From IMG/VR virus record IMGVR_UViG_2721755777_000003, positions 106,096 through 126,095 of that record: a stretch of DNA of 20,000 nucleotides, one strand, 5' to 3'. Shown piece by piece: positions 16,139 to 20,000 of the stretch. The translations under genes and the position numbers were made by a program. This DNA is from an uncultured virus (IMG/VR IMGVR_UViG_2721755777_000003). Lineage: Duplodnaviria; Heunggongvirae; Uroviricota; Caudoviricetes. Below the pieces are notes generated by a model, which saw only the letters and a list, made by a program, of their open reading frames with translations, did no database searches and was not told the origin of the DNA. The stretch's first letter is position 1, and each line of letters begins with the position of its first letter.

Positions 16139-16167
16139 AAATTTAATTTTTAGGAGAGATGTTTAAT

Positions 16168-17214
16168 ATGGCTATTCAAGTAAGAGAAAATCTTGTCTCA
16201 ACCAGCAAATACTCTATTAAGTGTCCGTATACGTTATCAGCCTCTTATATTACATTTCATAACACAGCCAATGATGCATCTGCAGACGCTGAAATTCGCT
16301 ACATGATCGGCAACAACAATGAAGTTTCTTATCACTTCGCCGTTGATGATGAAGAGGTCGTCCAAGGCTTACCTACAAATCGAAACGCATGGCACACTGG
16401 TGATGGATCAGGTGCGAATTCAGGAAACCGTACTTCTATTGGTGTAGAGGTTTGCTACTCCAAATCAGGTGGAGAGCGCTACAGAAAAGCTGAAGCGTTG
16501 GCTATTAAGTTTATTGCACAACTCCTTAAAGAACGTGGCTGGGGTGTGGATCGAGTTAAAAAGCATCAAGAATGGTCTGGCAAGTACTGCCCGCATCGAG
16601 TTCTTGATGAAGGTCGTTGGAATGCTGTTAAAGCTGCTATTGCTGCTGAATTGAAAACACTGGACGGAAATACTTCTTCCTCATCTTCAAAGCCAACAAA
16701 CGTTGTTAAAACAAATGGTTCTTATGTTAAAAACACAGTTATCGCTGACAGTCTTAATGTGAGAACCCAACGCAATGCAAACTCCTCTATTGTACTCGCT
16801 CTTCCTAAAGGCTCCACTGTCCAATACCAAAAAGGATCAACTCAAAATGGTTGGGGATATATCAAATATACAAACTCTAAAGGTGCTACATACAGCGGTT
16901 ACGTAAATGTGAAATACATTAAAAGTGATGCTGAACTTGGACAATCAACCCCAAAGCCTAAATCCACTTCTAAGCCTAAAAGCAGTGGTATCAAATCTGT
17001 AGGCAAAATTAAAATTGTCGGTGTACAAAGCGCTGCAATCGTTATGGACAGACCCGATAAAAACAAAGCGAAGAATCTCGGCACTGTGAAGCTAGGTGAC
17101 ACACTCAGCATTTCTGGCTCAGTGAAAGGGTCAAACAATGCTAAGGGTTACTGGGAAGTTATCTACAAAGGTAAACGCGGCTACATCTCAGGACAATTTG
17201 GGTCAAAAATCTAA
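16168..17214 (+). CDS. Endolysin, N-acetylmuramoyl-L-alanine amidase (Amidase_2; CwlA/XlyA-like catalytic domain) with two SH3-like cell-wall-binding domains
   Basis: SD AGGAGA (16152-16157) favours ATG 16168. Zn-amidase motifs YITFHNTANDASA, SYHFAVDD, NAWHTGDG, SIGVEVC and KHQEWSGKYCP. SH3b-like segment ADSLNVRTQ...GWGYI...GYVN. BlyA-like C-terminus. Confidence 0.92.
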   Translation: MAIQVRENLVSTSKYSIKCPYTLSASYITFHNTANDASADAEIRYMIGNNNEVSYHFAVDDEEVVQGLPTNRNAWHTGDGSGANSGNRTSIGVEVCYSKSGGERYRKAEALAIKFIAQLLKERGWGVDRVKKHQEWSGKYCPHRVLDEGRWNAVKAAIAAELKTLDGNTSSSSSKPTNVVKTNGSYVKNTVIADSLNVRTQRNANSSIVLALPKGSTVQYQKGSTQNGWGYIKYTNSKGATYSGYVNVKYIKSDAELGQSTPKPKSTSKPKSSGIKSVGKIKIVGVQSAAIVMDRPDKNKAKNLGTVKLGDTLSISGSVKGSNNAKGYWEVIYKGKRGYISGQFGSKI

Positions 17215-17270
17215 ATATATTTAAATATCTTTGAGGATGATTGTAGCTCAAAGTGTATCAATAATTATTT

Positions 17271-17302
17271 AGGAGGTGATGTGTCATTACCTCCTATTTT
17301 TT
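17271..17302 (+). terminator. Terminator-like hairpin between the endolysin and the holin genes
   Basis: AGGAGGTGAT-GTGTC-ATTACCTCCT stem followed by ATTTTTT. Confidence 0.65.
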
Positions 17303-17320
17303 ATGGAGGATGATTGCATT

Positions 17321-17692
17321 GTGGCTGAAAAAGAAAATTATGAAGTTTTAAAGACCGAGGTCTCTCATATTAAAGAACGTCTTAAAGAACAAGCAGAAGA
17401 TAGAAAAATCATGTTAGAAACACAAAAAACAACAAGTGAATCGCTCATTAGGCTTACAACTGTTGTTGAGAATCAGGAAAAAAACCTTGTTGAAACAAAA
17501 AATTTGTTCACCACTGAGATAGCTGGATTAAGAAATGAATTTCAGCAAGTTAATCAGTCGCAGACAAAGTGGCTTCAAAACTTATTAGAAGGAACATTCG
17601 GAAAGACATTAAAGATTTTAGTTTTAATTATTCTCTTACTGCTTGGTGCAGAGATCGCTGGTGTTGATATCACTAAATTAGCTAATTTATAA
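17321..17692 (+). CDS. Coiled-coil protein with C-terminal TM anchor (XhlA/BhlA-like holin-associated lysis protein)
   Basis: SD GGAGGA (17305-17310) plus GTG at 17321 gives 123 aa. Heptad-rich body and hydrophobic ILVLIILLLLGAEIAG. Located between the endolysin and the holin. Confidence 0.6.
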   Translation: MAEKENYEVLKTEVSHIKERLKEQAEDRKIMLETQKTTSESLIRLTTVVENQEKNLVETKNLFTTEIAGLRNEFQQVNQSQTKWLQNLLEGTFGKTLKILVLIILLLLGAEIAGVDITKLANL

Positions 17693-17704
17693 GGAGACGA
17701 TTTA

Positions 17705-17956
17705 ATGACTAAAATTAACTGGAAAGTAAGACTAAAAAAGAAAACATTCCTGGTTGCAATCTTCTCTGCAACTCTTTTGTTTGCACAAGCTATTGCATCT
17801 GCTTTTGGATACGATATTTCTGTATTTAGCGATGATCTTACTGAGAAATTTAATGCTTTGCTTACATTTCTAACTGCAATGGGGGTTGTAGTGGATCCAA
17901 CCACTACAGGTATCTCAGACAGCGATCAAGCAATGGAATACACAGAACCAAAATAA
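17705..17956 (+). CDS. Phage holin, phiLC3 family
   Basis: 83 aa, SD AAGGAG. Signature INWKVRLKKKTF...GVVVDPTTTGISDS with two TM segments. Confidence 0.9.
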   Translation: MTKINWKVRLKKKTFLVAIFSATLLFAQAIASAFGYDISVFSDDLTEKFNALLTFLTAMGVVVDPTTTGISDSDQAMEYTEPK

Positions 17957-17959
17957 CTT

Positions 17960-17983
17960 GGGGAGTTTGTCTCCCCTTTTTTT
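17960..17983 (+). terminator. Rho-independent terminator ending the lysis module
   Basis: GGGGAG-TTTGT-CTCCCC followed by T7. Confidence 0.85.
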
Positions 17984-18009
17984 CATTTTCAAGAAGAAAG
18001 GAATGATTT

Positions 18010-18297
18010 TTGATCATGCAAATAGGATCTGGATATATCGGAAGTCCAATGCTTGAGAAGTCAGAATCTAACCATGAAGTAATCCCTTCCCCACCTGCAA
18101 CCTGGACGATTAAATATTCTTTCTATAAATTCAGCTTTTCGAATGATCAGGAATGCCACGTATCAATCAATGGTGGCGATCCTATCTATTTAAGAGCTGG
18201 ACAAGGCTTTCAAATGGACGCTCATGATTCACCTATCACAAGCTTTAAAATTTCTGAGTCAGGAATAATATATAACTTTTTGGGGGCGCATAAATGA
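18010..18297 (+). CDS. Hypothetical small beta-rich protein (95 aa)
   Basis: SD AAAGGA plus TTG 18010 (or ATG 18016). Its stop overlaps the next start (ATGA). Confidence 0.7.
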   Translation: MIMQIGSGYIGSPMLEKSESNHEVIPSPPATWTIKYSFYKFSFSNDQECHVSINGGDPIYLRAGQGFQMDAHDSPITSFKISESGIIYNFLGAHK

Positions 18298-18572
18298 GTT
18301 TCTTCAATCCAATGGTTAATGTCTCAATTGTCACTGGGAAATCTGCTTATGATATTGCAGTGGACAATGGTTTTTCAGGAACTGTAGAGGAATGGTTAGC
18401 ATCATTAAAAGGTGAAAAAGGCGACACTGGAGCTACAGGTGCAACCGGGGTTAAAGGTGCTACTGGCGCTGCCGGTAAAGATGGAAAATCAGCATATGAA
18501 TTAGCCGTTCAACAAGGTTTCTCTGGAACATTAGATGAGTGGCTTGCTTCTCTAAAAGCAACAGCAAATTGA
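18294..18572 (+). CDS. Mini collagen-like protein with a duplicated GKSAY...WLASLK motif
   Basis: 92 aa: GKSAYDIAVDNGFSGTVEEWLASLK, then (Gly-X-Y)8, then GKSAYELAVQQGFSGTLDEWLASLK. Confidence 0.8.
   Translation: MSFFNPMVNVSIVTGKSAYDIAVDNGFSGTVEEWLASLKGEKGDTGATGATGVKGATGAAGKDGKSAYELAVQQGFSGTLDEWLASLKATAN
18336..18557 (+). repeat. Intragenic 75-bp degenerate direct repeat flanking a collagen tract
   Basis: Copies at 18336-18410 and 18483-18557 encode near-identical 25-aa motifs with many synonymous differences. Confidence 0.75.
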
Positions 18573-18576
18573 TCAT

Positions 18577-18608
18577 ATACCCTTCTCTAACGAGGAGGGT
18601 ATTTTTTT
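18577..18608 (+). terminator. Rho-independent terminator
   Basis: ATACCCTTCTC-TAAC-GAGGAGGGTAT followed by a T run. Confidence 0.85.
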
Positions 18609-18662
18609 CGTTTCGTTCATAATCAAATTATTGATTTGTTTTTAATTTTCACTCAAATTCCC

Positions 18663-18696
18663 TTTACATTTCTTTCCTCCAGTGCAACTATATAAT
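18663..18696 (+). promoter_or_regulatory. Candidate rap promoter (-10 element)
   Basis: Perfect TATAAT at 18691-18696. The best -35 match, TTTACA (18663-18668), is 22 bp away, which is non-canonical. Confidence 0.4.
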
Positions 18697-18723
18697 AAAA
18701 TGGATTTGAAAGGGGTTTAGGAC

Positions 18724-19884
18724 TTGAAGAACGAAAAGGTCATTCCTTATGATTTAGTAGCAACAAAGATGAATCATTGGTATGTGGCTATTAAAAAGAA
18801 TTGGGTCGGTAGAGCAGAAGAAATGCGTAAAGAAGTTATGCAGGAAATAAAAATTATGGAAGAAAACCAAGATGTTTTACTATACTGCTCCCTACTTGAG
18901 TTTAGACATAAGCTAATGTTGGCATATATGTATCCTAACGCTATAAAAGACATTGAGAAAAATTATGGTGAGTTAAAAGCATATGAAGGCCATGAAAACT
19001 TAACAGGAATGCTCGAATATTACTATTATTTTTTCATGGGCATGTTCTATTTTAGACAAAAGGAGTTGGCATTCTCCCTTAATCACTATAGACAAGCTGA
19101 GAGATATTTGGATTCAATTGAGAGCGAAGATATTGAAGTTGAAAAAGCTGAATTTTATTTTAAATTGTCAGAAGTGTATTACCACATGAAACAGACTTAT
19201 TTTTCAATGAATTATGCCATGAGGGCTTACGATATATTTAAAAAGCAACCTGCTATTGACGGGAGCCCTACATACGGGGTACAAAAGGTACGCTGTCAAT
19301 TCGTCATATTTGGTAATTTATTGGACAGTATGAAGTTTGATGAAGCTTTAAAGCAAGCATACAAAGCGTATCAGGAAGCAGTAGAGCTAAACAAAAGTGA
19401 AAAGAATCGTGGGCATTTGATGCGTTCAGCACTGTTTAATATTGGATTATGTTATAATCAAATGGAAGAACTTGATAAAGCATTTTTTCACTTTAATAAG
19501 TCACTTCAAATCATTGAGCCGGAAAATCATGATTACGCTGCTAAAACATTATTTGTTATCTCCTTCTTAAAGGGAAGGCAAAATGACATTGAAAACGCAA
19601 AAAAATTTTATGAACAGGCCAAACAGTTGGCTGAACGGCATAACAATGAAATGGTACTTGAAAAGTTAAAAATGGTTAAAGGACTTTTCTTGGACTATGA
19701 TTTAGACTTAGTTAGGAAAACATTCGAGTTCTTCAAAGAAAGAAGTATATACCCTGACATGGAAAGCTATGGTGTCTCTGTAGCAGATTTTCTCACTGGA
19801 AAACAGGATGCTTGGGGTGCAGTTGAATTTTATCGTTTGGCAAATGAAGCAAGAAGACAAATCAAAAGGGGAGAAGCAATATGA
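18724..19884 (+). CDS. rap: Rap-family response regulator aspartate phosphatase / TPR peptide receptor (RapK/RapI-like)
   Basis: 386 aa, SD AAAGGGG plus TTG. Rap motifs IPYDLVATKMNHWY, MEENQDVLLYCSLLEFRH, GMLEYYYYFFMGMFYF, EKAEFYFKLSEVYYHMKQTYFSMNY and ARRQIKRGE. Confidence 0.93.
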   Translation: MKNEKVIPYDLVATKMNHWYVAIKKNWVGRAEEMRKEVMQEIKIMEENQDVLLYCSLLEFRHKLMLAYMYPNAIKDIEKNYGELKAYEGHENLTGMLEYYYYFFMGMFYFRQKELAFSLNHYRQAERYLDSIESEDIEVEKAEFYFKLSEVYYHMKQTYFSMNYAMRAYDIFKKQPAIDGSPTYGVQKVRCQFVIFGNLLDSMKFDEALKQAYKAYQEAVELNKSEKNRGHLMRSALFNIGLCYNQMEELDKAFFHFNKSLQIIEPENHDYAAKTLFVISFLKGRQNDIENAKKFYEQAKQLAERHNNEMVLEKLKMVKGLFLDYDLDLVRKTFEFFKERSIYPDMESYGVSVADFLTGKQDAWGAVEFYRLANEARRQIKRGEAI

Positions 19885-20000
19885 AAACTAAACTATTTAT
19901 CTGTGCAGTTCTATTATTCGGCGTTGCCGGAACAGTGGGTGCTTCCTATCTCCAACAACAAAATGATACGTTCAAGGTTGCTGAAAGAGCCGAAACGTAA
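19881..20000 (+). CDS. phr: Phr signalling pre-peptide (39 aa; predicted mature ERAET or AERAET)
   Basis: ATGA overlap with the rap stop and SD AAGGGGAG inside rap. Translation MKTKLFICAVLLFGVAGTVGASYLQQQNDTFKVAERAET*: signal peptide, then KVA-ERAET with Arg at position 2 of the pentapeptide. Not in the ORF track. Confidence 0.9.
   Translation: MKTKLFICAVLLFGVAGTVGASYLQQQNDTFKVAERAET

Follow-up and report, generated by a model that had tools for sequence, protein, structure and literature searches.

The 20,000-nt stretch of DNA analysed here (the window) forms the final 20 kb of a provirus record, 126,095 bp long, whose tail and lysis genes are SPbeta-like; the window closes with a gene for a Rap receptor followed by a 39-codon open reading frame. 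The locus raises the question of whether these two genes form a working signalling pair and, if so, on which target the receptor acts and whether its peptide is a channel distinct from the arbitrium system of the same genome. The reading that we favour, with a probability of roughly 0.7, is that of an intact accessory rap-phr cassette, whose Rap is likely a Spo0F phosphatase and possibly an inhibitor of ComA until re-import of ERAET or AERAET shuts it off.

Both reading frames lie where a previous sequence-only reading had placed them, on the same strand and overlapping by 4 bp (ATGA), and the first product matches RapH_N (E 4e-21) and TPR repeats in Pfam and nothing else, with no DNA-binding domain (Table 1). 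A terminator had also been proposed ahead of the cassette, and the hairpin with its T run is indeed found there and is retained 5' of different Rap cassettes; the upstream gene order likewise precedes other Rap cassettes. The proposed TATAAT box fared less well, because the hexamer is present but a consensus promoter scan, which found 6 sites against 5.5 expected, made no call at it for want of a good -35 element at 17 bp. The same block also fits TTTACA-N17-AACTAT with a TG motif, and it is conserved before Raps of 58-69% identity whose flanks have diverged; a promoter upstream of rap is therefore probable, with either TATAAT or TG-n-AACTAT as the candidate -10 element. With a terminator before rap and a conserved candidate promoter block, the cassette is probably its own transcription unit, as had been claimed. 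A separate promoter for phr was considered and rejected: a sigma-H-like AGGA-N16-GAAT at 19805, with a spacing one short of the sigma-H consensus, is absent from the 89%-identical relatives L014 and L030, and the internal promoter is unsupported for that reason.

Table 1. Features of the rap-phr locus and its upstream flank, in window coordinates
Feature	Position	Strand	Description
Upstream context, outside the cassette	16159..18572	+	Amidase, coiled-coil protein, holin, 95-aa protein, small collagen-repeat protein (Pfam)
Intrinsic-terminator-like hairpin	18577..18602	+	11-pair stem and T run; closes the late/lysis operon, left edge of the variable slot
Candidate promoter block	18663..18696	+	TTTACA 18663-18668, TG 18683-18684, AACTAT 18686-18691, TATAAT 18691-18696 (overlapping AACTAT)
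RBS-like AAAGGGG	18709..18715	+	Upstream of the rap TTG start; conserved in relatives
rap	18724..19884	+	TTG start, 386 aa; Rap receptor/phosphatase near RapP and RapI
phr	19881..20000	+	39-aa pre-pro-peptide, Sec-type signal, ends KVAERAET; last base is the window end

Contigs from RNA libraries cover rap-phr in all six runs with contigs. In three of these, from two studies, a deep contig starts at 18721-18738, apart from the shallow contigs of the lysis genes, and in the other three one contig bridges the upstream gene and rap; in one run contig depth is far greater towards the 3' end of rap. Because the contigs are unstranded and may include DNA, they offer a weak hint of a separate transcript, and contig depth was not used for ranking expression. 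Neither of two raw-read RNA runs carried the cassette, and reads from the runs lacking rap match a relative of the gene at 18294-18572 with different downstream sequence. That gene encodes a small protein in which two similar short repeats flank a collagen-like core whose length varies. Further upstream (16159-17692, compared with L001, L011 and L015), phages that are otherwise close differ by swaps of the amidase and of the gene that precedes the holin, and the lysis module is therefore mosaic.

The phr product bears the Sec-type signal ascribed to it, its N-terminus being basic and its core hydrophobic (hydropathy peak of 3.3 over 9 residues), and the published SignalP call on the homologous propeptide AHZ16189.1 is Sec/SPI at 0.70 with cleavage at VGA-SY (PMC10075063 supplement). 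An open frame of 39 codons is weak evidence alone, as it arises in 8.4% of base shuffles; the frame is nonetheless taken as real because it is conserved, with ERAET ending 14 of the 15 members of the phr protein cluster and with 4 synonymous codon changes to 1 non-synonymous between the window and L014 (86 to 41 for rap). The mature peptide is predicted to be ERAET or AERAET, and its basic residue at position 2 (E-R-A-E-T) is matched by the receptor anchors D201 and N239. The suggestion that the peptide was unannotated does not stand, since 194 contigs in NCBI/nr carry the exact 39-aa propeptide and printed catalogues include it. One plasmid record, whose gene table is incomplete, leaves phr out, and NCBIfam has no model for either the Rap or the Phr protein.

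The AlphaFold model of the Rap (pLDDT 89.5) is all-helical, and RapI is both its top fold match (TM 0.81) and the best PDB match by sequence (4I1A, E 6e-89). Identity is 48% to RapP, about 41-43% to RapI-like proteins and 31% to Rap3T and to RapC-like and RapF-like proteins, and the Raps in 33 GenBank phage records reach 31% at most. We presumptively assigned the labels RapA-, B-, C-, F-, I- and J-like from adjacent peptides, length and identity. Phylogeny places the receptor with RapP, more weakly with RapI, and apart from the phi3T Rap. A quick maximum-likelihood tree was built from 84 full-length Raps of the retrieved loci, with broken copies left out; in it the ERAET Raps form one clade (SH-aLRT 99) that sits within a group of 32 including RapP of pBS32/pLS32 (SH-aLRT 99), whose identity is confirmed by Thr at the anchor Asn position; RapI-like proteins are the sister of this RapP/ERAET group at SH-aLRT 82, and the phi3T Rap is far off.

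On the face predicted to contact Spo0F, residues Q49, E47, L52, L57 and F60 equal RapH Q47, E45, L50, L55 and F58 (a subset of the 18 interface positions), and RapH Q47, L50 and F58 are needed for activity (PMC3035606). In the peptide groove, Y68, Y153, D201 and N239 match RapF anchors, and D201 and N239 (RapF D194 and N227) are invariant in all 47 aligned homologues. Recognition of Glu1 is predicted because K314 aligns to the RapF-303 position, at which Lys selects Glu1 (PMC3601957). The ERAET Raps displayed at 97% and 89% identity agree with the window Rap at all 19 pocket positions, and at 70% identity 18 of the 19 agree. Arg at position 234 accompanies Glu4 peptides in 7/7 displayed Raps and appears in 0/17 others (24 of the 84 rows displayed), and also in L150 and in the L058 fragment; the match of R234 to Glu4 counts as a single event because it is confined to one clade. 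Two positions depart from expectation: at V311 a Tyr would be expected for a Glu1 peptide, and S348 replaces the N-terminal anchor Asp. On the ComA-binding surface, RapF F24 and P27 are N26 and G29 here; RapP is also without them, and this surface is not conserved in many ComA-acting Raps (PMC5199041).

Because the catalytic Gln and the peptide anchors are kept, the Rap most likely dephosphorylates Spo0F. The cassette would then work as follows. While ERAET is low, Rap would dephosphorylate host Spo0F and perhaps also block ComA. By analogy with the family, Phr would be exported by Sec and trimmed by a protease after ...KVA, and ERAET or AERAET would be re-imported by Opp. The peptide may then bind in the TPR groove, with Arg2 facing D201, the backbone N239, Glu1 K314 and perhaps Glu4 R234, and binding would close the receptor and end Rap activity, as family members suggest.

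Several characterised systems bear on this reading. The nearest is RapP-PhrP of pBS32/pLS32, with a similar propeptide and a peptide ending DRAAT, and RapP represses Spo0F and ComA outputs (PMC6123732, PMC12935306). RapP shares 13-14 of the 19 pocket positions with the ERAET Rap but has Glu rather than Gln at the catalytic position, and the pBS32 allele is peptide-blind (N236T) whereas the ERAET Rap keeps N239; the peptides also differ. RapI of ICEBs1 (RapI-PhrI), which resembles the ERAET Rap in sequence and fold and keeps the catalytic Gln, acts as a phosphatase on Spo0F and is inhibited by its own penta- and hexapeptide (PMC3601965). The third system, Rap3T-Phr3T (PDB 8RST), comes from phi3T, an SPbeta-like phage with arbitrium, and occupies the same slot, between holin and uvrX, as the present cassette (PMC11343458). 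It has been characterised experimentally, and the phi3T Rap represses sporulation and competence reporters (PMC11343458), whereas one study that overexpressed phi3Ts rap saw no significant change in the timing of sporulation (bioRxiv 2020.05.06.055103), and PMC8044106 calls its role unknown. The present cassette does not belong to the Rap3T/RapBA3 type, being 31% identical, in a separate clade and with a single ERAET where Rap3T has the duplicated peptides RRGHTA/SRGHTS. In our alignment the phi3T Rap (L071:8995-10134) has His, not Gln, at the catalytic position, though it is a reported repressor of a sporulation reporter. Spo0F-contact residues are kept even in Raps not acting on Spo0A and fail to predict activity; among 10 newly cloned Raps, 4 affected neither pathway strongly (PMC5199041).

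One feature of this particular copy leads to an alternative, which we consider unlikely: that the pair is cognate but the Rap is weakened or inactive on host targets, the cassette being a near-neutral or decaying passenger. Codon 55 of rap (18886-18888) is TGC, giving a Cys where close relatives all have Tyr or Phe; the 84 aligned Raps have 66 Tyr, 13 Phe, 4 Leu/Ile and the single Cys of the window. The column corresponds to RapH Tyr53, whose aromatic ring is considered important for Spo0F contact (PMC3035606), and from sequence the Cys may weaken Spo0F binding by the Rap of this genome. A passenger would also be consistent with the frameshifted or truncated copies that occur elsewhere (3 of 10 catalogue rows; L017, L037, L044 and L058), with a slot that can be empty (L113), and with the lack of a sporulation effect in the phi3Ts study cited above. 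Against it, the frame is intact and the other key residues checked are kept, the lineage shows the synonymous excess, Ile or Leu is tolerated at column 55 in 8 of 47 homologues including RapP, and the Cys itself may stem from a sequencing error or from a private mutation of recent date.

The broken copies are of several kinds. In the PMC5199041 supplement, rows 13, 46 and 2896 have a frameshift near an A run at about residue 297 (window near 19600-19610), by which the final TPRs are lost and phr is left intact; such Raps might be peptide-blind or dead. The 13 closest viral loci are intact at the A-run position. Broken Raps of the same clade lie in Bacillus chromosomes, near holin/uvrX remnants or alone (L037:8001-9259, L044:8001-8411, L058:8001-9270), and L058 retains a Phr ending DRAET. 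In L017:2151-6597 and in L072, a 122-kb circular B. velezensis record listed as a plasmid, the tape-measure gene joins the C-terminal half of rap, with phr intact; this fusion marks an SPbeta-like element that has lost its tail and lysis block by deletion.

The last base of the record is that of the phr stop codon, an end shared by 11 of the 13 viral loci with 97-99% identity, and we infer from this that the record boundary had been cut back to a called gene. The possibility that the cassette forms the prophage end was rejected, as longer relatives run on through a hairpin after phr into convergent uvrX and yolD. The other end of the record (G000:C1:1-924) holds a fragment of a host xanthine/uracil permease, which suggests the integration neighbourhood. 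The holin was found in 64 viral loci, of which the 51 at >=75% identity were examined for slot contents: this Rap is in 15, a Rap3T type in 11, an RRGQT type in 2 and a third type in 5 (its peptide, read in one of them, is ERPVGG); 1 has an ERAET Rap of 64% identity on the opposite strand, 1 runs straight into uvrX, 2 have a gene of another kind, and in 14 the sequence is too short for a call. In L161 and L162 a 700-aa ORF, some 870 bases after the holin, fills the slot in place of a Rap. Phages that carry another Rap, or no Rap, cease to resemble the window in DNA at 18607-18613, just past the terminator. The holin-uvrX slot is thus swappable, with at least four Rap types or none.

The arbitrium locus of the same genome lies far from this slot, at G000:C1:62381-63689 (AimR at 62535-63689, AimP ending SASRGA), and no AimR match is found by Pfam at the rap-phr locus. 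AimR is present in 14 of 14 SPbeta-like ERAET records tested, whose AimP endings are SASRGA (4), SAIRGA (4), SPSRGA (3), SIIRGA (2) and GMPRGA (1). Because one Phr peptide is paired with five different AimP peptides, the proposal of a channel separate from arbitrium is borne out: these observations support ERAET as an independent and exchangeable channel.

The co-occurrence with AimR also gives some footing to the idea, in our judgement quite unlikely, that the Rap acts mainly on a phage regulator, as RapI does in ICEBs1 and the pLS20 Rap does in its plasmid, so that ERAET would be a second direct input to induction or the lysis-lysogeny decision. RapI, the nearest solved relative, activates ImmA and ICEBs1 excision (PMC3601965), and known Rap targets include mobile-element repressors (PMC11343458). 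However, no ImmA-type peptidase (PF06114) was found in the prophage, with 0 matches in G000 up to an E value of 1 and, as a control, 10 of 14 genomes positive, and the control of phage decisions entertained by the sequence-only reading is accordingly unsupported. The pLS20 Rap is distant (E 3.5e-24 in the PDB sequence search), and an ERAET Rap of 69% identity resides on a record without AimR (L018). Furthermore, the slot takes unrelated Raps (<=31% identity) or none in near-identical phages, and such exchangeable or absent contents argue against a fixed phage partner. A broader form, in which ERAET is a signal common to prophages with at least five arbitrium peptides and to non-arbitrium elements, and the receptor feeds a phage induction/lysogeny switch, we hold to be very unlikely; if true, phages would gain a cross-dialect census on top of arbitrium.

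Highly improbable as a main role is cross-talk with the host, whereby the Rap would listen to PhrC (ERGMT) or ERAET would act on RapC, RapB or RapJ: ERAET and ERGMT have E1, R2 and T5 in common, K314 corresponds to the Lys by which a RapF mutant gained PhrC binding (PMC3601957), and recent papers report arbitrium cross-talk, but only 10, 12 and 9 of the 19 pocket positions are shared with RapC-like, RapB-like and RapJ-like proteins, the Met4 cleft of Tyr/Phe/Gln in RapC and RapF is here Phe238/Ile264/Lys274 with Arg234 adjoining, and strict orthogonality within a genome, with two cross-talk cases between strains, is described by Even-Tov et al. (PMC5199041). The earlier suggestion of PhrC cross-talk thus survives in part, as the Glu1-Lys314 contact makes weak cross-talk at high peptide levels possible, whereas the position-4 pocket is unlike that of RapC and known pairs are mostly orthogonal.

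The favoured reading of an accessory pair aimed at Spo0F concerns a type that was already on record. Supplementary file 5 of Even-Tov et al. 2016 (PMC5199041) lists 10 ERAET rows, all in cluster 91, with an identical 39-aa propeptide in 6 of the 10, an incomplete Rap ORF flagged in 3, and an empty 'Characterized Rap name' cell; a search of Phr catalogues for ERAET, offered earlier as a check, is thereby answered. The window cassette belongs to this cluster, having the identical propeptide and a near-identical Rap: row 136 is two residues apart by eye, and Cys55, present in the window Rap, is absent from the full-length rows shown. Bernard et al. 2021 (PMC8027211, Fig S2B) depict a B. velezensis prophage with Phr ERAET and AimP SASRGA, which the text of that paper names as a second dual-system phage, and the RRNPP_detector table (PMC10075063 Table S4) gives AHZ16188.1/AHZ16189.1 as a 1161-bp rap and a 120-bp phr with a 4-bp overlap. 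The prophage of B. velezensis SQR9 thus has the same ERAET and SASRGA pairing, gene sizes and overlap, as a prediction only; the SQR9 papers report one such prophage, whereas here 14 records pair ERAET with five AimP types. The same group counted 326 viral Rap-Phr systems (bioRxiv 2021.07.15.452460).

The claim of novelty therefore fails, the pair and its co-occurrence with SASRGA arbitrium having been published as predictions. The narrower claim that ERAET is uncharacterised agrees with what we found: a full-text search, with subscription journals and bioRxiv supplements outside its reach, returned no experiment on the ERAET pair, ERAET does not occur in the 12 of 16 PMC11343458 supplements searched, PMC11532509 has no passage on the ERAET Rap, and cluster 91 is without a named characterised Rap. 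In sum, the cassette is real, intact and correctly identified, yet already catalogued down to its peptide and its arbitrium partner, and it holds no surprise for a specialist because the kind of module is known and the exact type is catalogued.

What the analysis adds is that a single slot of SPbeta-like phages is home to Rap-Phr types of distant clades that can replace one another, and that the distribution of ERAET is independent of arbitrium type. The pair is a handy one for asking what prophage Raps do to lysogens, a question left unsettled after the phi3T work, and it also suits probing the Arg234-Glu4 specificity contact and the Cys55 allele. The likely effect of the cassette would be that lysogens delay sporulation or their output of public goods until carriers of ERAET elements are dense.
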